Shown piece after piece: positions 9,248-36,914 of a stretch of DNA of 45,075 nt. The translations under genes were made by a program, and so were the position numbers. The DNA is taken from NCBI GenBank assembly GCA_023135835.1, contig JAGLSI010000002.1, forward strand, positions 1 to 45,075, read 5' to 3'. Each line of letters starts with the position of its first letter. Within the stretch, counting starts at the first letter, position 1. The DNA is from Minisyncoccota bacterium (GTDB taxonomy: Bacteria > Patescibacteriota > Minisyncoccia > Phycocordibacterales > UBA12079). The notes beneath the pieces were generated by a model. It saw only the letters and a program-made list of their open reading frames with translations, ran no database searches and was not told the origin of the DNA.

Positions 9248-10063
9248 ATGTTAACTATAATCAAACCAAAAAAAACTTTCAATTGGAACGATTTCAGAGA
9301 AATCTGGCAATATAAAGAATTGTTATATTTCCTAACTTGGAGAGATATTAAAGTTCGTTATAAACAAACGGCTATTGGAATTTTATGGGCACTCTTCCAA
9401 CCTTTTATGACTATGGTGGTTTTCACTATATTTTTTGGAGGATTCGCAAAAATGCCATCTGACGGAATTCCCTACCCAATCTTTGTTTACTCAGGACTTT
9501 TATTTTGGCAATTTTTTTCCGCTTCTTTAACCGATGTTAGTAATTGTTTAATATCTAATAAAGGAATAATCACAAAAGTATATTTTCCCCGTATAATTTT
9601 GCCGATTTCTTCTACTGTTACAAAATTTGTTGATTTTTTTATTGCGTCTACTATTTTAGTTGGAATGATGATTTATTACCAATATACACCCAACTTAATT
9701 GGTCTTTTAATTATTCCACTACTTCTATTAATTACTTTCATGGCTTCTGTCGGCGGTGGTTTATTTCTAGCTTCTATTAATGTTAAGTACCGCGATGTTC
9801 GTTATGTATTACCTTTCTTTATTTCAATGATGATGTTTATAACTCCGGTAATTTATCCAGCCAGTATTGTGGGAAAATATTCATGGCTTTTAGCTTTAAA
9901 TCCTATGACTGGAGTAATCAAAGCCTCTCGTGCCGCTCTTTTGGGGAACGCTCCAATAAATTGGGAGCTTCTTGCGATCTCAGGAATAGCTTGCTTAATA
10001 CTATTATTAGTCGGCTTTTACTTCTTCAAAAAAACCGAACGTTATTTTGCAGATATAGTATAG
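9248..10063 (+). CDS. wzm: ABC-2 type polysaccharide/teichoic-acid export permease (Wzm/TagG-like)
   Basis: 271 aa with 6 predicted TM segments. The N-terminus WQYKELLYFLTWRDIKVRYKQTAIGILWA is the characteristic ABC-2 permease signature. Confidence 0.85.
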   Translation: MLTIIKPKKTFNWNDFREIWQYKELLYFLTWRDIKVRYKQTAIGILWALFQPFMTMVVFTIFFGGFAKMPSDGIPYPIFVYSGLLFWQFFSASLTDVSNCLISNKGIITKVYFPRIILPISSTVTKFVDFFIASTILVGMMIYYQYTPNLIGLLIIPLLLLITFMASVGGGLFLASINVKYRDVRYVLPFFISMMMFITPVIYPASIVGKYSWLLALNPMTGVIKASRAALLGNAPINWELLAISGIACLILLLVGFYFFKKTERYFADIV

Positions 10064-10099
10064 AAGTAAATATACAAATAATACGAATGCAACAAATGA
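10059..10099. repeat. Gene-junction repeat, empty-site copy (tatagaagtaaatatacaaataatacgaatgcaacaaatga)
   Basis: It is about 85% identical to 21776-21792 plus 21817-21840. It contains a dead-end ATG (MQQMKWIYKQKE stop) that mirrors the MQQ start of the GT2 gene at 21828. Confidence 0.7.
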
Positions 10100-10116
10100 A
10101 ATGGATATACAAACAA

Positions 10117-10184
10117 AAAGAGTGAAATTGGTCAAACCAACCTCACTCTTTCTTGGAGAACTCAATTTCTATGAGTTCTCCAAG
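10117..10184. terminator. Two tandem hairpins between convergent wzm and the radical SAM gene
   Basis: Hairpin 1 is aaagagtga...tcactcttt (10117-10151). Hairpin 2 is a perfect 13-bp stem cttggagaactca / tgagttctccaag (10152-10184). Confidence 0.65.
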
Positions 10185-10206
10185 ACAGTAAAAATAACAT
10201 AAAAAA

Positions 10207-11532
10207 CTAACCTTTTTTAGAAACCAGATTATATTTATCTGCAAATTCCATAAATTCAATAATTTTCTCACGAGAAACATCTCCTGCTATAACCTTTAAA
10301 CTATGATGATTTGCTTCTTCAATTGCATGATCTCTCCCTTCTCTGTCTTTTAAAAAACTGACTCTGGAAAAATCAATACTATTTTTATAAAATCCTGTTC
10401 CAATGTAAGGAGTATAAATCGCAGCGCTAACATAAGTTGGTTTGATTTCATCAATAAACCTCATAGTAGCATCAGCATCTATGGAAGTTTCACCAGGGAC
10501 TCCAACCATTACATAAGCCATCCAGGGTACAGAAAAGCTATTAAGCAATTTTGCAGCATTTCTTGCTTGATCAAGATTTGTTCTTTTGTTCATCAAGTCT
10601 AGCACCTTCTGGCTACCACTCTCAATCCCCAGTTTAATCATACAGCAACCAGACTCTACCATTTGTTTAAGAATTACTTCATTTAATCTATCTACCCTAG
10701 TCAAACAACCCCATTCATATCCTTTATCACGAATACCTTTGGTAAATTCCAAAACTCTTTTTTTGTTTAGAGTAAAAGTATCATCAGTCAGATAAAATTT
10801 CTGAGTACCATATCTTCTGTTAGTATCATCCATTTCAGCGATAACATCACTAATATTTCTGAACCTAACTCTCTTCCCCCAGAGTTTTTCTGAACAACAA
10901 AAATTACAAGATCCTGGACAACCCCTAGAAGTCATCATAAAGCCAAGGTCAGAAGGTTTATAGTTCTCAATTCCAATGAGACTTTCTCTCGCCATCCACG
11001 GCAATAAATCTAAGTTTTGGATTCTATTCGCCCTTATAATTCTAGTCTTGGGAGTACCATCAAAAACTTCCATCTGTTCTTCAGCTTCTCCAACAATAGC
11101 ATAATCAACAGGGCTACCTTCCTTTATTACATCACTTGGTCGAATTGTTACATGGGGACCTCCAGCAACAATTCTTTTAACACCCATTTCTTTTGCGATT
11201 TGCGCCACTCGCAAACCACTTCTTAATTTAGTAGAGATAAAAGAAACACCAACCACATCTGGTTTTGACTCTTCAATTTGAGAAGAAATACTTTCCCAGA
11301 TAGAATGACTCCCATTATTTAAACTATTAAGATACTCATCATAATGACCAATCTTAGTCATAAAAGGATAAGGATTCCCCTTAGGGTTATAATCCGAATC
11401 AAGAACTTCAACTTCATGGCCCATTTTTTTCAACTTTCCAGCTAAAAATAATAGTCCAAGCGGAATTCCGGCCTTTGAAAAACCCATAAATTTTTGAAAG
11501 GGAGGATCTATAAGTAAAATCTTCTTTTTCAT
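10207..11532 (-). CDS. B12-binding-domain radical SAM protein (class B-like)
   Basis: The N-terminal Rossmann-like part has KKILLIDPP...GHEVEVLD. The CxxxCxxC cluster is MTSRGCPGSCNFCCS. An AGGAG Shine-Dalgarno sequence lies 7 nt upstream. Confidence 0.8.
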   Translation of the reverse strand: MKKKILLIDPPFQKFMGFSKAGIPLGLLFLAGKLKKMGHEVEVLDSDYNPKGNPYPFMTKIGHYDEYLNSLNNGSHSIWESISSQIEESKPDVVGVSFISTKLRSGLRVAQIAKEMGVKRIVAGGPHVTIRPSDVIKEGSPVDYAIVGEAEEQMEVFDGTPKTRIIRANRIQNLDLLPWMARESLIGIENYKPSDLGFMMTSRGCPGSCNFCCSEKLWGKRVRFRNISDVIAEMDDTNRRYGTQKFYLTDDTFTLNKKRVLEFTKGIRDKGYEWGCLTRVDRLNEVILKQMVESGCCMIKLGIESGSQKVLDLMNKRTNLDQARNAAKLLNSFSVPWMAYVMVGVPGETSIDADATMRFIDEIKPTYVSAAIYTPYIGTGFYKNSIDFSRVSFLKDREGRDHAIEEANHHSLKVIAGDVSREKIIEFMEFADKYNLVSKKG

Positions 11533-11801: not shown

Positions 11802-13076
11802 ATGAAACCAATAATAAGCGCTAAGAACATCTCAAAAAAATACAACATCACTCATGAACAAGGAGGTTATATTGCTATGCGTGATGTATTAACCAACATA
11901 GCCAAAAAACCTTTTGCTTTTTTAAAAAAGAAAGTTGGTAAAATTACTGGGAGAACTACTAATGAAGTTTTTTGGGCATTAAAAGATATTAATTTTGAGG
12001 TGCAAAAAGGCGAAGCAATTGGAATAATCGGAGCCAACGGAGCGGGAAAATCTACCCTACTTAAAATTCTTACGGGAATTACTCCACCAACAACAGGCGA
12101 AATTAAAATGCACGGGAAAGTGGCTTCCCTTCTTGAAGTTGGAACAGGTTTTCACTCCGAGTTAACTGGACGAGAAAATATTTTTCTCAATGGAGCAATA
12201 CTAGGAATGACAAAAAAAGAAATAGCTGATAAATTTGATGCTATCGTAGAATTCTCAGGAGTTAGAAAATTTATTGATACTCCTGTTAAAAGATATTCTT
12301 CAGGGATGTTAGTTCGTCTTGGTTTTTCAGTTGCCGCTCATATGGAACCTGACATACTTTTAGTAGATGAAGTTCTGGCTGTTGGAGATGCAGAATTCCA
12401 AAAAAAATGCCTCGGCAAAATGGATGAGGTGACTACAAAAGGTGGACGAACAATTCTATTTGTTAGTCATAATCTAATTGCTGTCCAAAAACTCTGCAAA
12501 AGATGTATTCTTCTTGAAGAAGGTAAAATAAAAATGATCGGAGAGACAAAAGAAATCATAAGTAAATATTTAGAAAAAAATACCAACACTAAAGAAATTA
12601 ATAATCTGGGGGCGGATAAAGACAAAGAAATTGCTTTCACAAAAGTTTGGGTTACAAACGATAATGAAGAAATTATAGATAATATAAATGTAAATGAAAA
12701 ATTCAAAATTTGGTTAAAATTTGATGTAAACAAAGATATAAACACAGCAGAAATTAGTATCTTTTTAAAAAACTTAGCTGGGGTAAATATAACTTTTACC
12801 AACTTATCAGATTCTTTTAATAAAAAGTTTCTGACTCTAAAAAAAGGACATTACACAACATCTACCTTAATAAATGAAAACTTTTTAATCCCGGATGATT
12901 ATTTAGTAGGAATATCAGCCCACATAAGAGGTGTCAGAAACATTGATTTACACGACAATATTATGCGCTTTACAATAATAGAAAATGGTTCAACAATGGC
13001 TCCATACAGAAGTATGGCAAACCAATTAAGTTGTGTATTCAGTAATGCTAAGTGGGAGATATGCCCTACTAAATAA
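11802..13076 (+). CDS. wzt: Polysaccharide ABC exporter ATPase (Wzt/TagH-like) with about 160-aa C-terminal extension
   Basis: Walker A is GANGAGKST, the signature is YSSGMLVRLGFS and Walker B is ILLVDEVLAVGD. Residues from about 265 to 424 are an extra beta-rich domain. Confidence 0.85.
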   Translation: MKPIISAKNISKKYNITHEQGGYIAMRDVLTNIAKKPFAFLKKKVGKITGRTTNEVFWALKDINFEVQKGEAIGIIGANGAGKSTLLKILTGITPPTTGEIKMHGKVASLLEVGTGFHSELTGRENIFLNGAILGMTKKEIADKFDAIVEFSGVRKFIDTPVKRYSSGMLVRLGFSVAAHMEPDILLVDEVLAVGDAEFQKKCLGKMDEVTTKGGRTILFVSHNLIAVQKLCKRCILLEEGKIKMIGETKEIISKYLEKNTNTKEINNLGADKDKEIAFTKVWVTNDNEEIIDNINVNEKFKIWLKFDVNKDINTAEISIFLKNLAGVNITFTNLSDSFNKKFLTLKKGHYTTSTLINENFLIPDDYLVGISAHIRGVRNIDLHDNIMRFTIIENGSTMAPYRSMANQLSCVFSNAKWEICPTK

Positions 13077-13108: not shown

Positions 13109-13882
13109 ATGAAAAAAGATATTACTGAATTAAAAAAAATTATTGTTAAATCTTCACATGAATCTAAAGAAGGTCACATTCCAAGCACTCTTTCAATCTT
13201 AGACATTCTTTGGGTTCTTTATAATAAAATAATTAAAATAAATCCGAATAAACCTAAAGATATTTACCGAGATATCTTTATATTAAGTAAGGGGCATGCT
13301 TCTTTAGGACTTTATTCTATTTTGGCTAATAAAAACTTTTTTTCTTTTTCAGAATTCAAAAACTTTGGAAAATTTGGAAGTATCTTAGGAGGACACCCTG
13401 ACCGAAATAAAATTCCTGGAATAGAAGCATCTACAGGATCATTGGGTCATGGACTACCTCTTGCTATAGGGATAGCCTTGGGTTTAAAAATTAAAAAATT
13501 AAAAAATAAAGTTTTTGTAATTATAGGTGACGGTGAATGTAACGAAGGAACAATTTGGGAATCATCATTACTCGCCTCACACCATAATCTATCTAATTTA
13601 ACCTGTATAATAGACCACAACCATTCAACAGATAGAGCTTTAAAAATAGACAATTTATCTACTAAATTCAAATCATTCGGTTGGGAAACTATAACTATTA
13701 ACGGACATAATCACGAAGAAATTTATAATGCTCTTTCTCAAAAACACAACAAAAAGCCAATGATGATTATAGCAGAAACAATTAAAGGAAATGGTATTAA
13801 AATTATGGAAAATAATCCTGAATGGCATCACAAATCACCAAACTCAGATGAATTAAAATTAATTTTGGAAAAAATTACTTAA
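13109..13882 (+). CDS. Transketolase, N-terminal (TPP-binding) subunit
   Basis: SKGHASLGLY and the GDGECNEGTIWES TPP motif in a 257-aa split-type subunit. Confidence 0.85.
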   Translation: MKKDITELKKIIVKSSHESKEGHIPSTLSILDILWVLYNKIIKINPNKPKDIYRDIFILSKGHASLGLYSILANKNFFSFSEFKNFGKFGSILGGHPDRNKIPGIEASTGSLGHGLPLAIGIALGLKIKKLKNKVFVIIGDGECNEGTIWESSLLASHHNLSNLTCIIDHNHSTDRALKIDNLSTKFKSFGWETITINGHNHEEIYNALSQKHNKKPMMIIAETIKGNGIKIMENNPEWHHKSPNSDELKLILEKIT

Positions 13883-13886: not shown

Positions 13887-14768
13887 ATGAGAAAACAATT
13901 TGTAAAAACTGTAGAAAATATTCTAGAAAACAACAAAGACGTAATTTTATTATTAGGAGATATTGGTATATTCAATTTCAGAAAATCTTTCAAAGATTTT
14001 CCTGATCGTGTTTATAATATTGGAATTTTAGAACAATCCACTATAGGAATGGCAGCCGGACTAGCAACATGTAACTTAATTCCTATTGTGCATACCATTG
14101 CTCCTTTTTTGATAGAAAGAAGCTTGGAACAACTAAAATTAGATTTCTGCTACCAAAAACTAGGTGGCAATTTCGTTAGTGTCGGAGCTTCTTATGACTA
14201 TGCCGCCTTGGGATGTTCTCACCACTGTCCAGGAGACATAGGAGAATTAATGAATTTACCAGAAATGGAAATAATTATTCCTGGAACAGCAAAAGAGTTT
14301 GATATTCTTTTTAATCAATCATATGATAATGGACACCCTACTTACTATAGACTAAGTGAAAATTCAAATAATTTTGATTTCCCTGTAAAATTTGGAAAAG
14401 CAAAAATAATCAAAAAAGGCAAAAAAGCAACAATAATAGCAGTGGGTCCTTTACTAGATAAGGTTATTGAGGCTTGTAAGAATTTAGATGTTACTATTTT
14501 ATACTACACAACTATATATCCTTTTGATAAAAATACTTTGAAAAACAATTGTGAATCTGGTAAAATTTTTCTTTGTGAACCTTACTATGAAGGACAACTT
14601 GTAGCAGAAATTATCAAAACATTAAAACCCAAACCAATCACCATAGATTTTATAGGTGTTCCATGTAAATTTTTAAGAAAATATGGAACAGCAAAAGAAC
14701 ATGACAAATCAATCAATTTAACAATTAAAAACATTGAAACAAGGATAAAAAAATTAATTTATGGATAA
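13887..14768 (+). CDS. Transketolase, C-terminal (pyrimidine-binding) subunit
   Basis: FNIGILEQSTIGMAAGLA...HTIAPF fits the transketolase Pyr domain. It begins 4 nt after the N-terminal subunit. Confidence 0.85.
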   Translation: MRKQFVKTVENILENNKDVILLLGDIGIFNFRKSFKDFPDRVYNIGILEQSTIGMAAGLATCNLIPIVHTIAPFLIERSLEQLKLDFCYQKLGGNFVSVGASYDYAALGCSHHCPGDIGELMNLPEMEIIIPGTAKEFDILFNQSYDNGHPTYYRLSENSNNFDFPVKFGKAKIIKKGKKATIIAVGPLLDKVIEACKNLDVTILYYTTIYPFDKNTLKNNCESGKIFLCEPYYEGQLVAEIIKTLKPKPITIDFIGVPCKFLRKYGTAKEHDKSINLTIKNIETRIKKLIYG

Positions 14769-15789
14769 ACTCACAAAAATAATAGAAAATGACGCAAAAG
14801 ATACATGTAAAAAAATTGATTTTACAGAATTATTAGGTAAATCAATCATGATAACAGGAGCCTCTGGATTAATTGGAACTTATTTTTTAGCTTGTTTAAA
14901 AATTTTAAATGATAAAAACCCCGGAAAAATAAAAGTGATTGCTGTTATGCAAAATGAGTCTTCTGACCATTTAAAAAGCTTCTTAAATTTTAATAATGCT
15001 GATATATATAAAGGTGATTTAACAAATATTGATTTTTGCAAAGAATTACCCTCTGCGGATTATATTATTCATGCTGCAGGATATGGGCAACCAGGATTAT
15101 TTATGAAAGACCCAGTTAAAACTTTAAAACTTAATACTCTAACCACATATAATTTGTTTGAAAAACTATCTATTAACGGAAAGTTTTTATTTGTAAGTTC
15201 AAGTGAAGTATATAGTGGATCACCTAATCTACCTTATAAAGAAACTGACATTGGAACAACAAATACCACTCATCCTAGATCTTGTTATATAGAAGCAAAA
15301 CGATGTGGAGAAGCTATTTGTAAGGCTTATTACAATTTAGGAATTGAAGCTAAATCAGCAAGATTGTCATTAGCTTACGGTCCTGGTACTAAAAAAAATG
15401 ATTCCCGAGTCATTAATTCTTTTATTAAAAAAGCTATTGATGGTAAAATAGAATTACTAGATGAAGGGAAAGCTAAAAGAACTTACTGTTATGTCTCAGA
15501 CGCCATAGAAATTATGTGGGGAATCTTATTTTCAGGAAAAGATCCAATTTATAATGTAGGGGGTAAGTCAAAAACTACTATAGGTGAACTTGCAAAAAAA
15601 ATAGGGTTTATATTAAATGTCCCTGTGATTTTCCCAAAAAGTTCTACAAACACTATACAAGGGGCTCCTGAAGACGTTTTTTTAGATATGTCAAAAATAG
15701 AAAAAGAATTTCACAAAAATAAATACATTCCTTTAGATAAAGGACTCAAAAAAACGATTAATTGGCAATTAGAATTATATAATAATTAA
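14761..15789 (+). CDS. NAD-dependent sugar-nucleotide epimerase/dehydratase (extended SDR)
   Basis: ITGASGLIGTY glycine-rich loop and YIEAKRCGE (YxxxK). It overlaps the upstream gene by 8 nt. Confidence 0.8.
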   Translation: MDKLTKIIENDAKDTCKKIDFTELLGKSIMITGASGLIGTYFLACLKILNDKNPGKIKVIAVMQNESSDHLKSFLNFNNADIYKGDLTNIDFCKELPSADYIIHAAGYGQPGLFMKDPVKTLKLNTLTTYNLFEKLSINGKFLFVSSSEVYSGSPNLPYKETDIGTTNTTHPRSCYIEAKRCGEAICKAYYNLGIEAKSARLSLAYGPGTKKNDSRVINSFIKKAIDGKIELLDEGKAKRTYCYVSDAIEIMWGILFSGKDPIYNVGGKSKTTIGELAKKIGFILNVPVIFPKSSTNTIQGAPEDVFLDMSKIEKEFHKNKYIPLDKGLKKTINWQLELYNN

Positions 15790-21780: not shown

Positions 21781-21840
21781 AGATAAACATACCAACCTGT
21801 CTGCAGGCAGGTATACGAATAATACAAATGCAACAAATAA
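21776..21840. repeat. Gene-junction repeat, filled-site copy carrying a 24-nt insertion
   Basis: The sequence matches 10059-10099 but is interrupted at 21793-21816 by caacctgtctgcaggcaggtatac. The tetranucleotide atac is present on both sides. Confidence 0.7.
21795..21812. repeat. GC-rich palindromic element, short form (acctgtctgcaggcaggt)
   Basis: This is a 9+9 palindrome with one mismatch. Its core CCTG(T/C)CTG-CAGGCAGG equals the 20-mer at 31874 without the central CCGG. It lies 16 nt upstream of the GT2 ATG. Confidence 0.8.
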
Positions 21841-27737: not shown

Positions 27738-27738
27738 C

Positions 27739-29933: not shown

Positions 29934-30966
29934 TTATTATCTTTACTAATTCCTTCCCTAAGGTTTCAAGAGTACATTTTTGCATAAACTTATTATAACT
30001 ATTTTGGGCCAATTTTTCTCTTAATTCTCTATCTGCTTTTAATTTAAGGATAGCTTTAGCCAATTCTTGAGGATTTGCTGCAGGGACTAAATACAAATCA
30101 TCATCATTGAATAATTCCCTCACTGCAGGAGTATCAGCAGTAATTACAGGTTTCTTCATAGATACATATTCGTAAACTTTATGAGGAATAACTCTTTGAG
30201 TTTTATTTGTATCACCAAATATACCTAAACAAAGATCTGCTTGTGAAATATAATCAGGTAATTTTTCATAAAGAACATCATTTATGAAATTAACATTTAA
30301 AAAACCCTTCTTCTCATGAGTTCTCTTAATACGAGAACTTACAATATTGAATTGAATATCTTTATTGTCTTCAAGTAATCTTGCCGCCTCTAATATAAAA
30401 ATAACACCTTGCAATGGGACAATATTACCCTGATGCTGAATAATAAATTTAGTATTTTTTATAATAGGTTTTGGTTTAAAAAAACGAGTATCTGTTCCTA
30501 AAAGAACCTTAACAAATTTTTCTTTTTTTAAACCAAACTCTTGAACAAAATAATTGATATGTTCATCAGTATCTAAAATAACTTTATCCACTAATTTACA
30601 AGATAACCAATCTGTAAACCAAAAATATTTAGCTTTTAATCCTTCTTTTTTTGTATTTTTCCTATCAAAAACAGTTGAATCATAAATAGAAACAAGGGCA
30701 TCAAAAATTATTAATTTTCTAGTTAAAAATCTAGAAAGAATTGCAGCATGCCAACCCGGGAAAGCTACCAACAAAACATCGTATTCTTTGCGAATTTTCC
30801 AATGCTTTTTTATTAAATCAAAATATTTTATTACCCCTTTTAATTCAGTGCGACATTCTATAATATTGGCTCCATTCTCTTTTAATCCTAAAACAAGGGT
30901 TCTGCTACGAGAATAATTTGGGTCATATCTTCCAAAAAAACAAACTATTAATTCTTTATTTTTCAT
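29917..30966 (-). CDS. GT-B fold (GT1/GT4-like) glycosyltransferase
   Basis: HKVYEYVSMKKPVITADTPAVRELF is a C-terminal GT-B nucleotide-sugar-binding motif. Confidence 0.6.
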   Translation of the reverse strand: MKNKELIVCFFGRYDPNYSRSRTLVLGLKENGANIIECRTELKGVIKYFDLIKKHWKIRKEYDVLLVAFPGWHAAILSRFLTRKLIIFDALVSIYDSTVFDRKNTKKEGLKAKYFWFTDWLSCKLVDKVILDTDEHINYFVQEFGLKKEKFVKVLLGTDTRFFKPKPIIKNTKFIIQHQGNIVPLQGVIFILEAARLLEDNKDIQFNIVSSRIKRTHEKKGFLNVNFINDVLYEKLPDYISQADLCLGIFGDTNKTQRVIPHKVYEYVSMKKPVITADTPAVRELFNDDDLYLVPAANPQELAKAILKLKADRELREKLAQNSYNKFMQKCTLETLGKELVKIINEIQS

Positions 30967-32090
30967 TGTATTTTTTGATAAATAGAAATAACTTTTTTAA
31001 TTAAGTCTTCTAAATTATGATCTCTGCGAACAATTTCTCGCAATCTTTTTTCAATCTTTACCCTATCTCCATCAGATAGTTCTATTATTTTAGATACCTT
31101 TTTAGCCAAATCTTCACTATCTTTTGATTTAAAAAACAATTTATCCTTATACTCTTCAAAAACATTTCTTGAGGAATCATTACTTGAAATTGTTATTATC
31201 TCACAAGCCATTGCTTCTAAAATAACTTTATCTAAACTTCCTGTTTGACTCATGTTTACAAATAAATCAGCTTGATTTAAGTGATTAACAATATCTTTAT
31301 GAGAAACCGAACCCATAAAGTTTATATTTTCCTCCAAAGATTCATCTTTAATTTTTTGTTTTAATTTGCTTAAATAATCATCTTGATCAGGTAATCCTAT
31401 CTCTCCAATAATATCCAAATTAACATTTTGATTTTTTATTTTTAAAATTTTAATAGCATTAATCAGAGTTTCATAATCTTTAATAGGAGAAATTCTTCCC
31501 ACAGTAATCATTTTAAATTCTTCATTAGCTTTACGAACCTGCCTACCGGCAGGCAGGCTTTTTGACTTTATGAACTTTTGACTCGGTATCCCATGCCCTG
31601 TTATATTCAATTTTTTAGTTTTTAAACGAAAAGATTCTCTTGTTCCAGAAAAAATAGTATGCGTTAATTTTTCAGCTACTCTCAACTTAAAATCAACAGA
31701 TTTATGCATATACCAAAGCCCTATCTTTTTTCCCATTATTCGCCAAAATAAACCTCCTAAAATAACATATTCGGGGTTCATGTGTACAAACACATTGTCA
31801 TAATTATTTTTTTCAGACCAAATATATCGGTAAAAATTAAAGAGATACTTTTTCTTACTTTCAACTTTATGGACCTGCCTGCCGGCAGGCAGGCTTTCTG
31901 ACATTTGACTAGAAAGTTCTTTTCCCAAGGAAAGAACTTTCACATTTCTAGGTAAATCATATTCCCCAACACTCAAAGCAATCACTGTTACCTTTTCACA
32001 ATGTTTGGCAAATTCAATAACCCAGTCATGAAAAAAACCAAGCACATCATCATTTTTATCTATTTTTTGTGTAAGAATTAATAATTTCAT
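30963..32090 (-). CDS. GT4-like glycosyltransferase carrying two in-frame palindromic-element insertions
   Basis: VGRISPIKD...NMSQTGSLDKVILEAMACEIITIS. The ATG is at 32090 (MKLLILTQ). The peptide SLPAGRQV is encoded twice, by the palindromes at 31538 and 31874. Confidence 0.7.
   Translation of the reverse strand: MKLLILTQKIDKNDDVLGFFHDWVIEFAKHCEKVTVIALSVGEYDLPRNVKVLSLGKELSSQMSESLPAGRQVHKVESKKKYLFNFYRYIWSEKNNYDNVFVHMNPEYVILGGLFWRIMGKKIGLWYMHKSVDFKLRVAEKLTHTIFSGTRESFRLKTKKLNITGHGIPSQKFIKSKSLPAGRQVRKANEEFKMITVGRISPIKDYETLINAIKILKIKNQNVNLDIIGEIGLPDQDDYLSKLKQKIKDESLEENINFMGSVSHKDIVNHLNQADLFVNMSQTGSLDKVILEAMACEIITISSNDSSRNVFEEYKDKLFFKSKDSEDLAKKVSKIIELSDGDRVKIEKRLREIVRRDHNLEDLIKKVISIYQKIQ
31538..31557. 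repeat. GC-rich 20-bp palindromic element (cctgcctaccggcaggcagg, one mismatch)
   Basis: Read directly from the sequence. It lies inside the GT4 ORF and has conserved flanks of about 9 nt shared with the copy at 31874. Confidence 0.9.
31874..31893. repeat. GC-rich 20-bp perfect palindromic element (cctgcctgccggcaggcagg)
   Basis: Read directly from the sequence. It lies 336 nt (112 codons) from the other copy, in the same reading frame. Confidence 0.9.
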
Positions 32091-32146
32091 TGACTTTTTT
32101 TTTAGATAATATATTATTAAAGTAATCACCAACGGAAAAGATCACC

Positions 32147-32668
32147 CTACAAGGTACCGTCCTTGTGGGGTCTTTTCTTTTTATATGAAAGTAAATTCTC
32201 TAAATCATTCATATATCTCAAATATTTACGAAATATTTTAAATTTAAGTAAGGCCGAAAACTTTAAACGATTAGGAATCATTACTACTTTTAATTTATTT
32301 TGTTTAAGTAAGTAGGAAACTAAACAATGAAAATCTCCATCTCCAATAACTATCAAAGCTTTATCAAAATTAGAATATTCAATCATTGATTGTAAAACTA
32401 ACTCAGCGTCAACATTTCCTTTCATAGTTCCGTCTTTATATTCTAAAGTAGGCTTAAAGATACAAATAAAGCCTACTTCTTGTAAAAATTTATATAATTC
32501 ATCATTTCCTTTTACATACCCTATAAACAAGAAAGCTTTATTTACCTTATATTTTTCTTTTAAATATATTCTAAATCGTGCAAAATCTAATTTCCAACCT
32601 AATGCTAAAATACTTAAATTTAAATTTTGACTATCTATAAATGCATAATTATTTTCTTTCTTCTCCAT
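32147..32668 (-). CDS. NYN (LabA-like, PIN-related) domain protein, paralog 2
   Basis: YAFIDSQNL, GNVDAELVLQSM and LIVIGDGDFHCLVSYL. The C-terminus KKKRPHKDG parallels KKKRPLNG of paralog 1. The ATG at 32668 lies 2 nt after the AbrB-like stop. Confidence 0.75.
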   Translation of the reverse strand: MEKKENNYAFIDSQNLNLSILALGWKLDFARFRIYLKEKYKVNKAFLFIGYVKGNDELYKFLQEVGFICIFKPTLEYKDGTMKGNVDAELVLQSMIEYSNFDKALIVIGDGDFHCLVSYLLKQNKLKVVMIPNRLKFSALLKFKIFRKYLRYMNDLENLLSYKKKRPHKDGTL

Positions 32669-32670
32669 AT

Positions 32671-32850
32671 TTATTTTTTCCAATCTTTTATAATTATCCT
32701 TTCTTTTTTATCATCAACTTCTACCTCAAGTTTTTGAAATTTTTGCCAACCTAAACCTCTAATTACCTCAATAGGCAAAGTAACAAAATAAGTAGGTCCA
32801 TTTTTTGATAATTTTCTTATATTTCTATCTTCTAATTTTCTTCTAGCCAT
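32671..32850 (-). CDS. AbrB/MazE/SpoVT-type small DNA-binding protein (59 aa), not in ORF track
   Basis: Hand translation: MARRKLEDRNIRKLSKNGPTYFVTLPIEVIRGLGWQKFQKLEVEVDDKKERIIIKDWKK. The YFVTLPIEVIRGLGW...L.V.V pattern is the looped-hinge-helix motif. Confidence 0.6.
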   Translation of the reverse strand: MARRKLEDRNIRKLSKNGPTYFVTLPIEVIRGLGWQKFQKLEVEVDDKKERIIIKDWKK

Positions 32851-32952: not shown

Positions 32953-34095
32953 TCAATCATTTATCGTCTTTAACCAACCTTCTTTAATCAAAGCTAAATT
33001 TTCATTTCTACTTTGTGGAATTTTTTGCATAAAATCGTTATATGCTTTTTCTTTTAATTCTTCTATCAATTCAGGATGTTGTTGAATATTTTTTATACTT
33101 TGGGCAATACATTTTTCATTTCCAACCTCACACAATAAAGCATTGTTTCCACTTAAAACCTCTCCAACTATTCCAACTTTTGTAGTTAAGATTGGACATT
33201 TAGAAACAATTGCTTCAACCAAAGAAAGCCCGTAACCCTCATAATTAGAAGTTGAAAGAAACAAATCCGCAGTTTTATAATACGAAATAGGGTCATCAGT
33301 CCATTTTTTAAAAATTACCTTTTCCTCCAAACCTTTTCTTCTAGCCAACCTTCTTAAACTTTTTCTCTGTGAGCCTTCCCCTACTATTATTAATCCAGTC
33401 TTAGGAAAAATATCAACAACATCTTTCATAGCAGAAATAGCTAAAGAAATATTTTTCTCACTCTCTAAACGACACATCATTAAAATTATAAATTTAAATT
33501 GTAAATATTTTTCTTTTAAAGAAAAATTTGGAGTTGAAACTTGAATCAAATTTGAACTTGTAAAAATAGGAACTATTGTAATTGGTTTTTTCTGAAGTCT
33601 TTTTGGTAAAGATTCTTGTATTCTTTTAGAAACAACTCTTATATGATCTGCTCTTGATAGAAGAAACTTGGCTATTCTAGATCTAAAAAAATTAGCCAGT
33701 GAGTGCTTAATAAAATATTTATTAAATAAATCTGTATGAATCTGTAATTCTAATTTAGTTTTTATTTTTCTAGACATGACCCAAGCAATAAAACCTGTCT
33801 CATACGCATCTTGGGCAGTAATTAAATCTATCTTTTTTTTATCTTTAGATTTAAATTCTTTAATATTTAAAGCAATTTTTATAGCATCAAAAATATATAA
33901 AAACTTATTTACCGAATTAGTCGGATAAACTGTACATTTTTCACTTATTCTCACTTTTTTATAAGATTCTGATTCAAGATTTAAAACAACCACACACAAA
34001 TTATCAACTAACTCAGCATAATCTAACAACCTTTGTCTTACCAAGCTTTTTTCTTCAAATATTTTTTTATCTGTACTTAATATTAAGATGTTCAT
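32953..34095 (-). CDS. GT4 family glycosyltransferase
   Basis: CRLESEKN...LSTSNYEGYGLSLVEAIVSKCPILTTKVGIVGEVL. The ATG at 34095 lies just after the RelE-like stop. Confidence 0.8.
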   Translation of the reverse strand: MNILILSTDKKIFEEKSLVRQRLLDYAELVDNLCVVVLNLESESYKKVRISEKCTVYPTNSVNKFLYIFDAIKIALNIKEFKSKDKKKIDLITAQDAYETGFIAWVMSRKIKTKLELQIHTDLFNKYFIKHSLANFFRSRIAKFLLSRADHIRVVSKRIQESLPKRLQKKPITIVPIFTSSNLIQVSTPNFSLKEKYLQFKFIILMMCRLESEKNISLAISAMKDVVDIFPKTGLIIVGEGSQRKSLRRLARRKGLEEKVIFKKWTDDPISYYKTADLFLSTSNYEGYGLSLVEAIVSKCPILTTKVGIVGEVLSGNNALLCEVGNEKCIAQSIKNIQQHPELIEELKEKAYNDFMQKIPQSRNENLALIKEGWLKTIND

Positions 34096-34099
34096 TTTT

Positions 34100-34360
34100 T
34101 TAATATATATCATGTTTACCAATTGAATAAAACCTTATGTTTTTGTTTTGATCAAAGTCAAAAATAATTCTATATTCAAAATCAATTGAAAAAGTATAAA
34201 AGTTTTTAAATCGTCTGTGTAACTTATGAGTTTTAAGTAATGGAGTAAAATAATCTTTTATAAATATCTTTTCTTTTTTTAATACTTTTTGCTGAATGGA
34301 AATAGGTAACTTTTTAAACTTTTTTAAAAAACTATTTTTATAATAAATTTTAACTTTCAT
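34100..34360 (-). CDS. RelE/ParE-family type II toxin
   Basis: 86 aa with KTHKLHRRFKNFYTFSIDFEYRIIFDF...IRFYSIGKHDIY, typical of RelE/StbE-type mRNA interferases. It overlaps the antitoxin gene by 11 nt. Confidence 0.75.
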   Translation of the reverse strand: MKVKIYYKNSFLKKFKKLPISIQQKVLKKEKIFIKDYFTPLLKTHKLHRRFKNFYTFSIDFEYRIIFDFDQNKNIRFYSIGKHDIY

Positions 34361-34583
34361 ATTTTTTAAGAGCTTCTTCCATAGAATTAGCTTTTATAAT
34401 ACCCTCATTATTTTCAAATTCTTTACGCATTTCCATTAATTCTTTATATAAAGTGTCTTCTTTCCATTGTCTAATTAAATTACGAAAAAACTCGCTAGAT
34501 GAAGCATAAGAACCTTTTTTAATTTCTTTTTTTATATCTTTAGCCATCTCTTTTGGCAAGGAAATAGTCATCGTTGTTCTCAT
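34350..34583 (-). CDS. Ribbon-helix-helix (ParD/CopG-like) antitoxin
   Basis: MTISLPKEMAKDIKKEI..GSYASSSEFFRNLIRQW is an RHH motif. The gene sits directly upstream of the toxin. Confidence 0.75.
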   Translation of the reverse strand: MRTTMTISLPKEMAKDIKKEIKKGSYASSSEFFRNLIRQWKEDTLYKELMEMRKEFENNEGIIKANSMEEALKKYES

Positions 34584-34612
34584 TATTTTATTTAAATTAT
34601 CTATTAATGTAT

Positions 34613-34629
34613 GTAAGACAATGTCTTAC
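34613..34629. promoter_or_regulatory. 17-bp palindrome upstream of the antitoxin gene (putative operator)
   Basis: gtaagaca a tgtcttac lies 30 nt upstream of the ATG at 34583. Confidence 0.4.
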
Positions 34630-34650
34630 TCCTTATCCTATATTAATCTA

Positions 34651-35748
34651 TTATTTATTATTTGTCAAAACTTTTTCTAAATTGTCTAAAGTGTTTTGAA
34701 TTGAAAATTTTTGAGACTTTTTAAAAGCATTTTGAATTATCTTTTCCCTAAATTCGTCATTCCTAAAAATTTTAATTATGGCGCTTAAAATTTGTTTTTT
34801 ATTATTTGGTTCTATTAAAATTCCATCCATATCGTTTTGAATTAACTCAGGGTTTCCTCCAATGTCTGTAGTAATAATAGGAGTTCCTAAATTAGCGACC
34901 TCAATTAATTGATGGGCAAATCCTTCATACTGCGTATTAAGAATATAAACGTCCGCTTTTTTCATTTCTTCTAATGTTTTTTCTAAGGATAAAGCTCCTA
35001 TCAAAACAACATTATCTTTCAGATCCAAATCTTCTATTAATTTTTCCAATTCTTCCTTTTGAGGACCCCCTCCCACTATTTTTAGCTTTATATTAGGAAT
35101 TTCTTTCAAAATTTCTGGCATAAGCTCAATCAAAACACCAAAACCCTTCCAAGGAACTAGCCTCCCCACTGATAACAACACTTTTTCATCACTTGGGGGT
35201 GCTACCCCCAAGTTCTTTGAAAGTTCAATTCCGTTGTAAATTGTTTCTATTTTTTCTGAACTTATCCCCCAATTTTCAATAACCCCTTTAAAATATTGAC
35301 TAGGCACGATTATTGTTTCTGCAGACAAAGCTACTTTAAGTTGAATCTTTTTAAGCAACTCAACAAAAAAACCATAAACATTTTTTTGTGCTGAAAAAAT
35401 ATCTAGATTATCTTCTACCCCGAATCTCTGAACACCTTGCTCCCAAGCATAATCCCCAGCGATACGAATTAAAAACCTTTTCTTTAAAATTTTATTCGCT
35501 AAGATAGTTGGAAAACCTACACTTACAGGATCTTGAGCATAAATTACATCTACTTTTCGTCCTTTTTTTAAAACTTTGAAAAAATAAACAGCATGCCTAA
35601 TTATTTTTGGCAAATTACGAACTTCACCAAAAGACAAAACTTCTACCTCAAAACCTCTTTCCGGCAATTTATCAAAAAGTAATTTTGAATAAGTTGCTGG
35701 TCCCCCAACATCAGGAGGATATATTCCTGTTGTGATTAATATTTTCAT
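34651..35748 (-). CDS. GT4 family glycosyltransferase
   Basis: GGPATYS...VGRLVPWKG...LNTQYEGFAHQLIEVANLGTPIITTDIGGNPELI. Confidence 0.8.
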   Translation of the reverse strand: MKILITTGIYPPDVGGPATYSKLLFDKLPERGFEVEVLSFGEVRNLPKIIRHAVYFFKVLKKGRKVDVIYAQDPVSVGFPTILANKILKKRFLIRIAGDYAWEQGVQRFGVEDNLDIFSAQKNVYGFFVELLKKIQLKVALSAETIIVPSQYFKGVIENWGISSEKIETIYNGIELSKNLGVAPPSDEKVLLSVGRLVPWKGFGVLIELMPEILKEIPNIKLKIVGGGPQKEELEKLIEDLDLKDNVVLIGALSLEKTLEEMKKADVYILNTQYEGFAHQLIEVANLGTPIITTDIGGNPELIQNDMDGILIEPNNKKQILSAIIKIFRNDEFREKIIQNAFKKSQKFSIQNTLDNLEKVLTNNK

Positions 35749-36914
35749 ATGATAGTTTTTTCAAAAAATCTTTTTTGCATTTCTTTTGCTAAAATATCCC
35801 AATTATATTTTTCTAAAACCATTATATTAGCAGTAGCAACAACCTTTTTTGTTTTCTCTGAATTACTCAAGATACTTTTAACGGCTTCTGCTATTTGTTC
35901 AGGATTTCTAGAATCCACAGCCCAGCCTGTTATCTCTTTATTAGGGTTCCTCTTTTCATCAAATAAAAAGTCAGCAATCCCTCCTTCTTGAGTAGCAATT
36001 ACAGGCAAACCTACTACCATCGCTTCTAAAAAGGAATTCCCTAACCCTTCTGATAACGAAGCTCTTACAAAAATATCTGAAATTTTTAAATATTGTGGAA
36101 TTTCTTTGTGATCAACAAATCCTAAAAAATTAACTCTATTTTTTAAACCTTTTTTTTGAACAATATCTTTTAATTCTTCTTCATCTTCACCCTTCCCTAC
36201 AAGCAATACCTTAATGTTTTCTGGTAAATAAATAAGAGCCTGAATTAAATCATCTATTGCGTTTTTATAAGTTAAACGCCCTGTGTGAACTAAAAACCTA
36301 TCTTCTGATTTCTTATTTAATTTTAGTTTTAAATTGGTTAAATGTTTTTCAGAATATTCTTGTGAAAAATTATTAATATCTACACCATTCGGAATTACTT
36401 CAATAGAACATTTTGCTCCCATTCTTTTTGCCCATTCAGCCAAATAACTACTAATACACTGAATTCTATCAGCTCGTATGAAAATATTTTTAAATTGATT
36501 CTTAACAAAATAAGTTTTCTTAGCAATATATTCAAAACTATCTCCTTCTTGTAAAGTTAATAAAAAAGTTATTTTTGGATTTAAAAACTTAAATTTTGAA
36601 GCAGCAAAACCTCCATAACTAGCCATTACAGCCCAGATGGCTGAATATTTATTTTGTTTTTGTAATTTCTGAGCATAAAAACCTCCCAAAAAAGCAAGGA
36701 GTAACTTATCAAACTTTGGAATTCCTACACCTAAACGATATACCAAAACATTTCCAATTTTCTCTTTTTTAGGTAATTTTCTATCTATCCTAGCTGTTAT
36801 CATATCAAAATCTAGACCCTTAACACGATCAGTAATTTCTTTTATAGCTATTTCAGCCCCACCCACAAAAGGGTAATAAGCTGTTGAAAATATTAAGATT
36901 CTTTTATTTACCAT
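35745..36914 (-). CDS. GT4 family glycosyltransferase
   Basis: YYPFVGGAE...TGRLTYKNA...VRASLSEGLGNSFLEAMVVGLPVIATQEGGIADFL. The ATG is at 36914 (the track start is TTG). Confidence 0.8.
   Translation of the reverse strand: MVNKRILIFSTAYYPFVGGAEIAIKEITDRVKGLDFDMITARIDRKLPKKEKIGNVLVYRLGVGIPKFDKLLLAFLGGFYAQKLQKQNKYSAIWAVMASYGGFAASKFKFLNPKITFLLTLQEGDSFEYIAKKTYFVKNQFKNIFIRADRIQCISSYLAEWAKRMGAKCSIEVIPNGVDINNFSQEYSEKHLTNLKLKLNKKSEDRFLVHTGRLTYKNAIDDLIQALIYLPENIKVLLVGKGEDEEELKDIVQKKGLKNRVNFLGFVDHKEIPQYLKISDIFVRASLSEGLGNSFLEAMVVGLPVIATQEGGIADFLFDEKRNPNKEITGWAVDSRNPEQIAEAVKSILSNSEKTKKVVATANIMVLEKYNWDILAKEMQKRFFEKTII

Follow-up and report, generated by a model that had tools for sequence, protein, structure and literature searches.

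Gene content of the locus

The window (the whole 45,075-nucleotide stretch analysed here) holds a glycan cluster of ~28 kb (Table 1), 97% of which is coding; glycosyltransferase (GT) genes account for 13.5 kb of its 27.7 kb and methyltransferase (MT) genes for 5.1 kb. The host is a Patescibacterium (CPR), and the nearest relatives of Wzt, of the flank and of the transketolase cassette described below come from Patescibacteria/Paceibacterota MAGs, which indirectly supports the initial annotation's view of a reduced-genome organism. The left half of the locus, on the + strand, and the right half, on the - strand, are transcription units that converge.

Table 1. Features of the glycan locus and their positions in the window
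Feature	Position	Strand	Description and support
Glycan cluster	9248-36914		Predicted to build, methylate and export a surface sugar polymer
wzm	9248-10063	+	ABC-2 permease of glycan exporter; PF01061 (ABC2_membrane) 65 bits; ~5-6 hydrophobic spans
Terminator-like hairpin	10115-10153	-	18-bp stem then T run, between 3' ends of wzm and the radical-SAM gene
B12-rSAM	10207-11532	-	Radical-SAM enzyme with cobalamin-binding domain; gene lies between wzm and wzt; PF02310 + PF04055
wzt	11802-13076	+	ABC ATPase with C-terminal carbohydrate-binding domain (CBD, residues ~270-424); PF00005 (ABC_tran) + PF14524 (Wzt_C)
TKN	13109-13882	+	Split transketolase-like ThDP enzyme, N subunit
TKC	13887-14768	+	Split transketolase-like ThDP enzyme, C subunit
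SDR1	14761-15789	+	Dehydratase/decarboxylase-like extended SDR; PF01370; motifs SSSEVY, YxxxK
SDR2	15802-16824	+	Epimerase/dehydrogenase-like extended SDR; PF01370; motifs SSSSLYG, YxxxK
MT-a	16840-17775	+	Class I MT, fifth cassette gene; Methyltransf_31 26.9 bits vs. cut-off 27 (weak call)
GT10	17782-18792	+	Alpha-1,3/4-fucosyltransferase-like; PF00852 55 bits; motifs YITEK, ICYEN
MT-b	18797-19423	+	Probable Rossmann-fold MT; only profile match Erm/KsgA SAM-binding region, E = 1e-5 (weak)
DUF268 MT	19417-20151	+
Methyltransf_11 MT	20166-20804	+
GT11	20905-21780	+	Motifs GGLGNQMFQY, HIRRNDY
GT2a	21765-22883	+
GT2b	22836-23777	-
FkbM MT	23822-24718	+
GT-A-fold transferase	24727-25593	+	No Pfam family; AF2 model, pLDDT 88
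TOD1/MUCI70-like GT	25583-26335	-
Methyltransf_23 MT	26417-27055	-
FkbM-like MT	27066-27737	-
GT array part 1	27739-32132	-	GT4a, GT9, GT1x, GT4b
NYN nuclease	32147-32683	-
AbrB/SpoVT-like ORF	32671-32850	-	59 aa; toxin-antitoxin-like pair with NYN
GT4c	32953-34122	-
RelE/ParE-like toxin	34100-34360	-
RHH antitoxin	34350-34583	-	RHH_1
GT4d (array part 2)	34651-35748	-
GT4e (array part 2)	35745-36914	-	Possible ORF extension to 36971
LTD-PKD-LTD surface protein	36985-38421	-	N-terminal signal/TM + C-terminal TM; candidate member only

Component identities were tested by Pfam and NCBIfam profile searches. These matched the Wzm/Wzt pair, the B12-radical-SAM enzyme (B12-rSAM), the split transketolase and the two SDRs of the initial annotation, and left its GT and MT calls standing instead of reassigning them to unrelated functions, so that the extreme GT/MT density claimed for a single ABC-transporter-dependent locus is upheld. 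The ~13 GTs of six families proposed there were recovered as 12 by Pfam (GT10, GT11, two GT2, TOD1/MUCI70-like, GT9 and six of the GT4/GT1 clan) and one by structure model, in six or seven families. Its 7 SAM methyltransferases are likewise profile-supported, with firm calls for two FkbM, DUF268, Methyltransf_11 and Methyltransf_23, and weak ones for the other two (MT-a and MT-b). No GT, MT, SDR or rSAM protein of the locus reached an NCBIfam equivalog cut-off. The initial annotation had found no polytopic GT; in a hydropathy scan none of the GTs had any membrane span, and the window encodes no polytopic proteins other than Wzm and a DUF2238 protein.

The structure model concerns the GT-A-fold ORF, for which only 20 homologues were found. 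All its Foldseek matches were GT-A transferases (top: SpsA, TarP, GalNAc-transferases and COLGALT1), and on this model it is a predicted 13th GT. MT-b is probably coupled functionally to GT10, as suggested by L004, one of the related loci, where the two are fused in a 539-aa protein. The initial annotation had called the polymer probably fucosylated; it may or may not be. GT10 and GT11 do bear their family motifs, but the window holds no Gmd/Fcl pathway (profile searches found neither gmd/fcl nor rml sugar-nucleotide genes) and GT10 may transfer the product of the transketolase cassette instead of fucose, because it follows that cassette in L025 and L113 as it does here.

Comparison with related loci

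Comparison with related genomes resolved a conserved left anchor, a variable centre and a conserved right array. In the left anchor, wzm and the Wzt nucleotide-binding domain (NBD) are conserved at 87-93% aa: relative to L004 and L005, the wzm product is 92-93% and the NBD 87-88% identical, whereas the CBD (Wzt_C match 44 bits vs. cut-off 30) is only 19-21% identical. The left flank from PheT to wzm is found again in L005 (Ca. Paceibacterota; 70-96% aa identity), and L004 shares with the window wzm, rSAM, MT-b, GT11, GT2a/b, FkbM, the GT-A enzyme and TOD1 (62-93%). Part 1 of the array has orthologues in the same order in L086, L087, L089, L090 and L094 (45-72% aa identity). In L086, L090 and L094, array, LTD and VirD4-like flank are syntenic (37-67%), with orthologues of the LTD-PKD-LTD protein (37-44% identity) adjoining GT4e. 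These patterns suggest serotype-locus-like evolution, with flanks that stay fixed, a Wzt CBD that is swapped as a domain and cassettes that can be exchanged.

Two toxin-antitoxin-like pairs lie inside the GT array and had been overlooked in the initial annotation; L086 and L090 have the NYN gene in the same position, and L094 lacks it.

The split-transketolase cassette and the B12-radical-SAM enzyme

The split transketolase opens a run of five genes, TKN-TKC-SDR1-SDR2-MT-a, whose order is kept in L025, L113, L114 and one further locus; the three for which DNA could be compared (L025, L113 and L114) show 50-72% aa identity. SDR1 has a UDP-GlcA decarboxylase as its top PDB match (110 bits) and SDR2 6vo6 (111 bits), though the catalytic Glu of SDR2 is absent. 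MT-a carries a clean EFGCGTG motif and an N-terminal extension of ~130 aa, and its orthologues (50-64% identity) come after the SDRs in L025, L113 and L114. The exporters of loci with the cassette are either Wzt_C or Wzx-like. L006, from a Bacteroidota MAG, has Wzt followed by TKN-TKC-SDR1, and the cassette also occurs in the glycan locus of another apparently non-CPR MAG. From sequence comparison, TKN-TKC-SDR-SDR-MT thus appears to be a conserved, portable cassette in glycan loci of several phyla, and it looks new. L006 has the only similar Wzt CBD (41% identity), and from this one locus comes the idea that the CBD might read the cassette product; L025 has the transketolase cassette with an unrelated CBD.

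The cassette product is probably a C-branched sugar. Split-gene transketolases are proposed to add C-branches to keto sugars (PMC12247030) during miharamycin/amipurimycin biosynthesis; according to the review, bioinformatics gave 13 putative cases, all from Streptomycetes, and no split-gene transketolase has been tested in vitro. As there, a two-subunit transketolase-type ThDP enzyme lies beside oxidoreductases able to create, then reduce, a keto sugar; here, however, the genes belong to polysaccharide loci in uncultured bacteria, CPR and Bacteroidota among them, and are part of a fixed cassette of five genes that includes a methyltransferase gene. Yersiniose-type branched sugars are made by functional analogues, the two-subunit E1-like enzymes and YerE.

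The B12-rSAM enzyme carries CxxxCxxC at residues 205-212 and resembles class B (cobalamin-dependent) radical-SAM methyltransferases (e.g., PhpK, HpnR/HpnP, GenK and the ApyD family) in its N-terminal B12-binding domain and radical-SAM core with that motif. It differs from them in matching no NCBIfam equivalog (best, ApyD, 153 bits vs. cut-off 750) and in its glycan-assembly context, from which we know of no characterised class B member. L004 has an orthologue (75% identity) at another place in the same locus, homologues at 47-63% identity lie within glycan loci in three of three contexts examined, an association that likewise looks new, and distant relatives of the GT array hold 2-5 B12-rSAM-like ORFs. 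Its putative reaction is probably the methylation of an unactivated carbon.

Proposed pathway and its alternatives

We consider it likely that the locus directs ABC-transporter-dependent ("capped O-antigen type") assembly and export of a heavily methylated heteroglycan at the Patescibacterium surface. An initiating transferase encoded elsewhere would provide the polyprenyl-phosphate primer, on which the 13 soluble GTs would assemble the whole chain at the cytoplasmic face. Conservation patterns suggest that the GT4e-d-c-b-GT1x(-GT9-GT4a) array is probably responsible for the adaptor or backbone, and that the variable-cassette GTs (GT10, GT11, two GT2, GT-A enzyme, TOD1-like) may add strain-specific residues. 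The five-gene cassette would supply a special nucleotide sugar: an SDR may form an NDP-keto-sugar, the split ThDP enzyme add a two-carbon (hydroxyacetyl) branch, the second SDR reduce it, MT-a methylate it and GT10 transfer it. SAM methyltransferases would O-methylate residues and B12-rSAM would act on carbon, with one methylated or unusual terminal residue as the putative chain-stopping cap; known caps are methylation, methyl-phosphorylation or a unique sugar, and the Aquifex aeolicus CBD binds 3-O-methyl-Man/Rha. By homology of its domains, the Wzt CBD would recognise the cap and the lipid-linked polymer would leave via Wzm/Wzt. Judging from relatives, a Wzy_C-type ligase encoded elsewhere may then pass it to an acceptor, for which a surface protein is the likeliest candidate, by analogy with S-layer/pilin O-glycosylation.

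The initial annotation did not recognise three expected components: an initiator, a nucleotidyltransferase and Wzx/Wzy. Profile searches of the window bear out these absences (no nucleotidyltransferase, Wzx, Wzy, WecA, WbaP, Wzy_C or LCP gene), but they are not anomalous here: a lack of Wzx/Wzy defines ABC-transporter-dependent pathways, for which a missing initiating transferase is normal too. WecA or TagO is commonly encoded outside such loci, and nucleotidyltransferases often away from them. In reviews WecA is the expected initiator, with its coding place not stated. The ~9 kb upstream, like the window, holds no initiating transferase, ligase, LCP or nucleotidyltransferase, and the start and end of the pathway are thus unobserved. 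Related polytopic proteins lie beside wzm in 13 other CPR wzm/wzt loci, and the three scanned are Wzy_C+TPR proteins (PglL/WsfB architecture); from these, the truly missing component appears to be the ligase.

Could the genes belong to more than one system, or more than one genome? The central GC dip (24-27% vs. 29-37% in the flanks) might suggest an assembly chimera of several genomes. To this we give next to no credence and take the locus as non-chimeric: tetranucleotide correlation is at least 0.97 in each 5-kb segment throughout the window, gene order is identical between the scaffold at ENA and the MAG contig at NCBI, the junctions recur in related genomes, and such loci are usually low-GC (review text). 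We also think it improbable that two independent glycan systems adjoin here, the + strand operon (wzt to GT2a) making an exported capped polymer and the - strand GT4 array (GT4e to TOD1) another glycoconjugate without Wzm/Wzt (a glycolipid, other polymer or protein glycan). The convergent halves and the conservation of the array beside a variable centre would suit this, as would distant array relatives (L099, L103, L104) that lack wzm/wzt within 10 kb and hold other polytopic proteins, one in L104 with weak PMT_2/PMT matches and two tested in L103 with none. However, missing wzt in L099 and L104 is uninformative, because a 10-kb flank is too short to reach wzt in the window itself, where 17 kb separate it from GT1x. 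Moreover, in the window, as in L005 and L004, wzm/wzt and the array genes share a single GT-dense locus without interruption, and the window has no second exporter.

Two further alternatives touch on the product. The split transketolase might be a housekeeping pentose-phosphate enzyme that lies in the locus by chance: TK-N matches 6yak, a genuine split transketolase, at 221 bits, and close homologues are widespread in CPR. This we judge very unlikely, as TK is absent at the corresponding site in the close relative L005, and SDR-SDR-MT then follow TK in every context examined, always inside a glycan locus, including the Bacteroidota MAG. TK-C, too, is far more diverged (98 bits), with Gly/Leu/Glu in place of His/Asp/Arg of 6yaj, positions we take to be the substrate-binding residues H461, D469 and R520 of E. 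coli TktA. More weight, though still on the unlikely side, goes to the same pathway yielding a wall-anchored secondary cell-wall or teichoic-acid-like polymer, LCP-attached to peptidoglycan and not to protein. In its favour, a Gram-positive-type envelope has been reported for CPR bacteria, the contig carries a sortase gene upstream, TagH/teichoic-acid exporter models give the Wzt NBD its highest scores (192-216 bits), and GT4e and GT2a/b best match TuaC- and TuaG-like proteins. Yet the TagH/teichoic and Tua-like scores fall far below curated cut-offs, TagB/TagF, TagD, LCP and polyol-phosphate genes are absent, and what lies beside wzm in relatives is a Wzy_C+TPR ligase, not LCP.

The capped, ABC-transporter-dependent pathway that we favour is of a well-known type, and its nearest known counterparts are capped O-antigen export and the O-glycosylation of S-layers in Gram-positive bacteria. 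With the former (e.g., E. coli O8/O9a with WbdD, A. aeolicus WzmWzt and the 22-gene wzm/wzt fucose-containing OPS operon of Rhizobium tropici) the locus shares a Wzm/Wzt pair with Wzt_C, all-soluble GTs, no Wzx/Wzy, methyltransferases to cap the non-reducing end, a CBD varying with glycan type and low locus GC. It differs in that wzm and wzt are split by an oppositely oriented gene, its 7 methyltransferases far exceed the need of a cap alone, gmd/fcl- or rml-type pathways are lacking, and the window shows no sign of WaaL or of an outer-membrane step; CPR bacteria are not known producers of lipid A-core. The S-layer glycoprotein glycan (slg) clusters of Geobacillus stearothermophilus and Paenibacillus alvei (wzm, wzt, the WsaE GT-MT terminator and the WsaB/WsfB Wzy_C O-oligosaccharyltransferase) are similar in their Gram-positive-type setting, wzm/wzt upstream of central GT genes, tightly overlapping genes and methylation capping. 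CPR relatives have a WsfB/PglL-like Wzy_C+TPR protein beside wzm, and the fusions in L004 (GT10-MT-b) and L005 (GT2-Methyltransf_24) resemble the bifunctional WsaE. Unlike slg clusters, which include rml genes, the window has no Wzy_C protein, WbaP-like initiator or recognisable S-layer gene.

The initial annotation's "undescribed system" therefore does not extend to the architecture, which matches these pathways, but holds for the sugar chemistry. The split-transketolase cassette and B12-rSAM set the locus apart from capped O-antigen systems, and we know of no biochemical precedent for either role in polysaccharide synthesis. They probably make sugars so far uncharacterised.

Gene content and pathway class of the glycan locus

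When each ORF of the window (GC ~28%, dense coding) was scanned against Pfam and NCBIfam, almost every item of the gene inventory that the initial annotation had drawn up was upheld, i.e., a Wzm/Wzt exporter locus rich in glycosyltransferases (GTs) and methyltransferases (MTs). The ~13 GTs claimed were matched by a count of 13, the last being a Pfam-less ORF with only 20 detectable homologues; its structural model has a GT-A fold (pLDDT 88) with best PDB matches that are all GT-A glycosyltransferases (SpsA, TarP, GalNAc-transferases, COLGALT1), so that this ORF is the predicted 13th GT. The seven claimed MTs comprise five firm and two weaker candidates: MT-a falls just short of its cut-off (26.9 against 27 bits) but has a textbook EFGCGTG motif, and the sole match of MT-b is to the Erm/KsgA SAM-binding region (E = 1e-5, four-sequence profile). 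The 27.7-kb span is 97% coding, with 13.5 kb given to GT genes and 5.1 kb to MT genes, and many of its genes overlap at their stop and start codons. No GT, SDR, MT or radical-SAM enzyme received an equivalog-level NCBIfam assignment, and the only Rfam matches in the window are three tRNAs. A defence system, raised by GT4-conflict Pfam matches, was rejected because these proteins match ordinary GT4 models with far higher scores.

Features of the window, in order of discussion from the left end
Feature	Coordinates	Strand	Detail
Leftmost ORF	92-1045		TTG start
PheT	1138-3564	-	NlpC/P60 peptidase domain inserted at residues ~345-471, between B3_4 and B5
Second NYN gene	3636-4178		
Zeta group	7672-9022	-	54-aa ORF downstream of the kinase, DUF2238 gene upstream
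Zeta-toxin family kinase	7838-8572	-	Just left of wzm
DUF2238 membrane protein	8600-9022	-	Small, polytopic
wzm	9248-10063	+	ABC-2 type permease, PF01061 65 bits (cut-off 26.9)
B12-binding radical-SAM gene		-	Between wzm and wzt
wzt	11802-13076	+	PF00005 79 bits; PF14524 (Wzt_C) 44 bits (cut-off 30.4)
Split transketolase, TK-N	13109-13882	+	
Split transketolase, TK-C	13887-14768	+	
SDR1, SDR2, MT-a, GT10, MT-b, DUF268 methyltransferase		+	Extended SDRs; MT-a class I; MT-b small, probable MT
Methyltransf_11 enzyme, GT11, GT2a, FkbM methyltransferase		+	
Pfam-less ORF	from 24727	+	288 aa, predicted GT-A enzyme
GT2b, TOD1/MUCI70-like GT, Methyltransf_23, second FkbM-like enzyme		-	
GT4a, GT9, GT1x, GT4b, GT4c, GT4d, GT4e		-	Right-hand array; GT1x is a GT1-clan enzyme
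NYN + AbrB-like pair	32147-32850	-	Toxin-antitoxin (TA)-like
RelE/ParE-like toxin + RHH antitoxin	34100-34583	-	TA-like
LTD-PKD-LTD surface protein and VirD4/TrwB-like coupling ATPase	36985-40072	-	Surface protein with N- and C-terminal TM
Aminotransferase-like protein, GNAT, DUF4015 protein	within 40180-44263 and 44663-45022	-	DUF4015: putative glycoside hydrolase, signal/TM segment
Tetrapyrrole-methylase-family protein	same two ranges	-	
tRNA-Asp, two tRNA-Met	contig end		

Judged by all features that can be tested in the window, the locus belongs to the capped subtype of ABC-transporter-dependent glycan assembly, in which Wzt bears a carbohydrate-binding domain (CBD). The Wzt ATPase has a C-terminal CBD, and hydropathy scanning found a membrane span in 0 of the 13 GTs, bearing out the claim that none is polytopic; Wzm, with multiple hydrophobic spans, and the small DUF2238 protein are the only polytopic proteins of the window, and Wzm the only one of the locus. 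Pfam scans and hydropathy likewise agree that the locus holds no Wzx or Wzy, but this absence, listed initially as a missing component, defines the ABC-transporter-dependent pathway and is no anomaly. The system, put forward initially as a candidate for an undescribed one, is not categorically new; its overall pathway type is textbook, with Gram-positive S-layer O-glycosylation clusters as the nearest functional analogue.

In the literature, Wzt proteins with a CBD read a modification at the chain end, which can be methylation, methyl-phosphorylation or a unique sugar and which both stops elongation and licenses export; the A. aeolicus CBD specifically binds 3-O-methyl-mannose, and Geobacillus WsaE, a GT-MT fusion enzyme, adds a 2-O-methyl cap. 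Candidate chain-terminating enzymes are the seven MT candidates of the window and, in relatives, GT10-MT-b and GT2-MT fusions. GT10 and MT-b, separate genes 4 bp apart in the window, are fused into one 539-aa protein in the related locus L004 (11964-13583, + strand), and a GT2 is fused to Methyltransf_24 in the Ca. Paceibacterota locus L005 (12263-14044). These Rosetta-stone fusions suggest transfer-then-methylate, terminator-type steps. As seven MTs exceed what a cap needs, the chain itself is probably methylated as well.

The glycan had also been called probably fucosylated. The family motifs of GT10 (YITEK, ICYEN) and GT11 (GGLGNQMFQY, HIRRNDY) make a GDP-linked 6-deoxyhexose donor plausible, yet neither SDR is a Gmd or Fcl (NCBIfam scores far below cut-offs), and a GT10 also comes after the transketolase cassette in L025 and L113. 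Fucose in the glycan is possible.

The locus encodes no initiating transferase, as first noted; none of the polyprenyl-phosphate type (WecA/TagO or WbaP) was found in the window or ~9 kb upstream. Because initiators such as WecA and TagO are commonly encoded outside such loci, this gap is commonplace rather than anomalous and does not disqualify the locus from the pathway. WecA is named in an S-layer review as the expected initiator of ABC-dependent synthesis.

The absence of a ligase is a more informative gap than that of an initiator, Wzx or Wzy. In 13 Patescibacteria (CPR) wzm/wzt loci (L007, L008, L013, L014, L017-L020, L023, L024, L026, L027, L083), related polytopic proteins are encoded upstream of wzm, mostly directly adjacent. 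Eleven are full-length (720-790 aa, 11-13 spans), two are truncated by the end of their contig, and all three scanned with Pfam consist of Wzy_C followed by C-terminal TPR repeats, a layout shared with the O-oligosaccharyltransferases PglL and WsfB. Searches of the window by tblastn with CPR Wzy_C+TPR queries returned no such protein, and in the window, as in L005 and L004, other genes occupy the position beside wzm. By analogy with these CPR loci, the exported glycan would most likely be transferred by a Wzy_C ligase encoded elsewhere. Its acceptor, in an organism not known to make lipid A-core, would probably be a protein. The main alternative to a protein acceptor is attachment to peptidoglycan by an LCP enzyme. 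Pfam and NCBIfam detected no wall teichoic acid genes (polyol-phosphate polymerases or primases TagB/TagF, CDP-glycerol/CDP-ribitol synthesis, LCP ligase) in any window ORF, and TagH models score 192-216 bits, under their cut-offs of 320 and 538.

Mosaic structure across relatives

We compared every protein of the window with two sets of loci, 80 genomic ones anchored on Wzt and 26 metagenomic ones anchored on GT1x, a comparison proposed initially for separating core from variable genes, and found conserved flanks around a variable cassette centre. L005 shares the left flank (PheT-NYN-MazG-PheS-RelA-LOG-zeta toxin-DUF2238-wzm) at 70-96% amino acid identity, and its Wzt is 87% identical to that of the window in the ATPase domain (NBD) but 19% in the CBD. 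The genes that follow its wzt differ (a STELLO-like GT, the GT2-Methyltransf_24 fusion, DUF1647), after which GT11, GT2a, GT2b and GT1x return. L004 retains wzm (93%), MT-b, GT11, GT2a/b, FkbM, the GT-A enzyme (87%) and TOD1, as well as the radical-SAM gene (a 75% orthologue, at a different position of the same locus); it is without the transketolase block, and its CBD is unrelated to that of the window. On the right, the order LTD-PKD protein/GT4e/GT4d/GT4c/(NYN)/GT4b/GT1x is syntenic in L086, L090 and L094 at 37-67% identity, its GT9/GT4a/MT23/TOD1 continuation recurs in L086, L087 and L089 at 59-79%, and GT4e-d-c-b-GT1x keep their order even in the distant contigs L099, L103 and L104 (30-49%).

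These alignments resolve the locus into a conserved left anchor (wzm and the Wzt NBD), a variable centre built of cassettes, and a conserved right GT array, and they place the recombination point at the NBD/CBD boundary of Wzt. With fixed anchors, recombination at this boundary and a variable centre, the locus behaves like a serotype-determining one. That the CBD is swapped between near-identical transporters is as expected if it reads a strain-specific cap.

The assembly chimera that the initial annotation had weighed is excluded for practical purposes. Every 5-kb slice correlates with the whole window in tetranucleotide composition at r of at least 0.97; gene order is identical in a 99-kb contig of MAG GCA_030641385.1, of which the window forms one end by exact protein matches, and in a 56.5-kb ENA scaffold of the same study; and all locus junctions are seen again in some related genome. 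In species-representative genomes, the closest relatives of Wzt come almost entirely from Patescibacteria (Paceibacterota, Parcubacteria and Saccharibacteria-labelled MAGs). GC dips in the central locus, and low GC is described as the usual signature of such loci in a review of S-layer glycans. An independent assembly from another sample (L003, ERZ23498475 scaffold_4917) has identical genes from PheT to the radical-SAM gene and ends ~330 bp into wzt, a break that may reflect strain variation beginning there.

Several further genes lie within or beside the conserved blocks. The two TA-like pairs inside the GT4 array had been missed by the initial annotation; the array NYN gene occupies the same place in L086 and L090 and is absent in L094. 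The distant arrays of L103 and L104 (JGI metagenome contigs) come with large polytopic proteins, one of which (L104) has weak PMT_2/PMT matches. PheT, the beta subunit of phenylalanyl-tRNA synthetase, forms an odd fusion for such an enzyme through its inserted peptidase domain; it is found as an identical 808-aa protein on several contigs and as a 79% orthologue in L005. The zeta kinase and DUF2238 genes are kept in L005, and L004 has an RND pump (AcrB + HlyD) at that site; zeta toxins phosphorylate UDP-GlcNAc. The LTD-PKD-LTD and VirD4/TrwB-like pair borders the GT array on its right, a conserved arrangement that L090 also has.

The split-transketolase cassette and the B12-radical-SAM enzyme

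TK-N aligns at 221 bits to 6yak, a characterised split transketolase; TK-C is much more diverged (98 bits), with DXS as its next best match. Where 6yaj has His/Asp/Arg, TK-C has Gly/Leu/Glu (by pairwise alignment, not structure), at positions that we take to be H461, D469 and R520 of E. coli TktA, i.e., substrate/sugar-phosphate-binding residues of the Pyr domain. The sugar-phosphate-binding residues of canonical transketolases thus appear not to be conserved in TK-C. The pair is not housekeeping, as the close relative L005 lacks it and as the same genes follow it in the same order, inside glycan loci, in every context examined. L025 reads wzt-TKN-TKC-SDR1-SDR2-MT-a-GT10 (46-62% identity), a Logan contig reads Wzt_C-TKN-TKC-SDR-SDR-MT-GT2-DUF268-GT11, and a Falkowbacteria contig (L113) reads Wzx-like flippase-B12-rSAM-TKN-TKC-SDR1-SDR2-MT-a-GT10-MT-B12-rSAM, with 64-72% identity in the cassette genes and 36% in GT10. 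The MAG that holds the L114 cassette is apparently non-CPR and also carries sigma-54 genes and genes of the type II secretion/pilin type, and a Bacteroidota MAG (L006) has wzt-TKN-TKC-SDR1 only.

A keto-sugar-type oxidoreductase context, with two SDRs after TKN/TKC, is found in the window, L025, L113, L114 and the Logan contig. SDR1 carries the Ser-x-Glu/YxxxK signature of dehydratase/decarboxylase-type SDRs and is closest to UDP-GlcA decarboxylase; SDR2 is without the catalytic-signature Glu and resembles epimerase or dehydrogenase enzymes (best PDB match 6vo6, presumably C. jejuni Cj1427). [quoted passage not shown] Our best reading is that the cassette would make a C2-branched, methylated nucleotide sugar, with GT10 as its usual transferase.

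Two other readings of the cassette were considered. That the pair feeds heptose synthesis for GT9 was rejected: no GmhA, kinase or nucleotidyltransferase is present alongside, GT9 sits in a different, separately conserved block, and TK-C differs at the three presumed substrate-binding positions. Co-inheritance of the CBD with the cassette has L006 in its favour, whose CBD is the only one that the window CBD resembles and whose TK genes also directly follow wzt; because L025 pairs the cassette with an unrelated CBD, we downgraded the link to a hint.

The radical-SAM enzyme (B12-binding domain PF02310 62 bits, radical-SAM core PF04055 78 bits; CxxxCxxC at Cys205, Cys209 and Cys212) has the domain architecture of cobalamin-dependent (class B) radical-SAM enzymes, for which methylation of unactivated carbon is the default expectation. 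Its homologues at 63%, 49% and 47% identity are all three in glycan loci (two with STT3 oligosaccharyltransferases, one with a Wzx-type flippase), and distant relatives of the GT array have from two (L103) to five (L104) B12-rSAM-like ORFs interspersed. Together these contexts make the association with glycan assembly robust. The STT3-type enzymes are in L110 (63%) and L111 (49%), which are possible N-glycosylation loci of DPANN archaea or of some other uncultured organisms; L110 also encodes a WecA/MraY-family (PF00953) protein.

Meaning for Patescibacteria surface glycans

What is new here is the documented mosaic structure in CPR with its domain-swapped CBD, a portable split-transketolase cassette outside Streptomyces secondary metabolism, and the recurrence of B12-radical-SAM enzymes in glycan loci. 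Read jointly, the cassette might supply a new C-branched (hydroxyacetyl-derived), methylated NDP-sugar to surface glycans of CPR and several other phyla, and the radical-SAM enzymes might carry out radical C-methylation or another radical modification of residues, a proposal that we make tentatively and regard as rather unlikely in full. If true, cell-surface polysaccharides would contain sugar chemistry not known so far, and the products may supply the cap that is read by the swappable CBD, and with it a determinant of episymbiont-host or phage recognition.

One published abstract describes all cultivated CPR as living attached to other microbes, and it is presumably at the cell surface that they meet hosts and phages. 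CPR genomes encode many surface-modification proteins, glycosyltransferases included, by one published account; our literature searches returned no paper that describes the structure of such a glycan from CPR. The locus offers a testable picture of how such a coat is built and diversified: the exporter is fixed, its recognition domain can be swapped, sugar cassettes are exchangeable and the backbone array is conserved. Both the split-transketolase cassette and the B12-radical-SAM enzymes recur in glycan loci of uncultured bacteria, and work on them could lead to new biocatalysts and to branched or C-methylated sugars not seen before.
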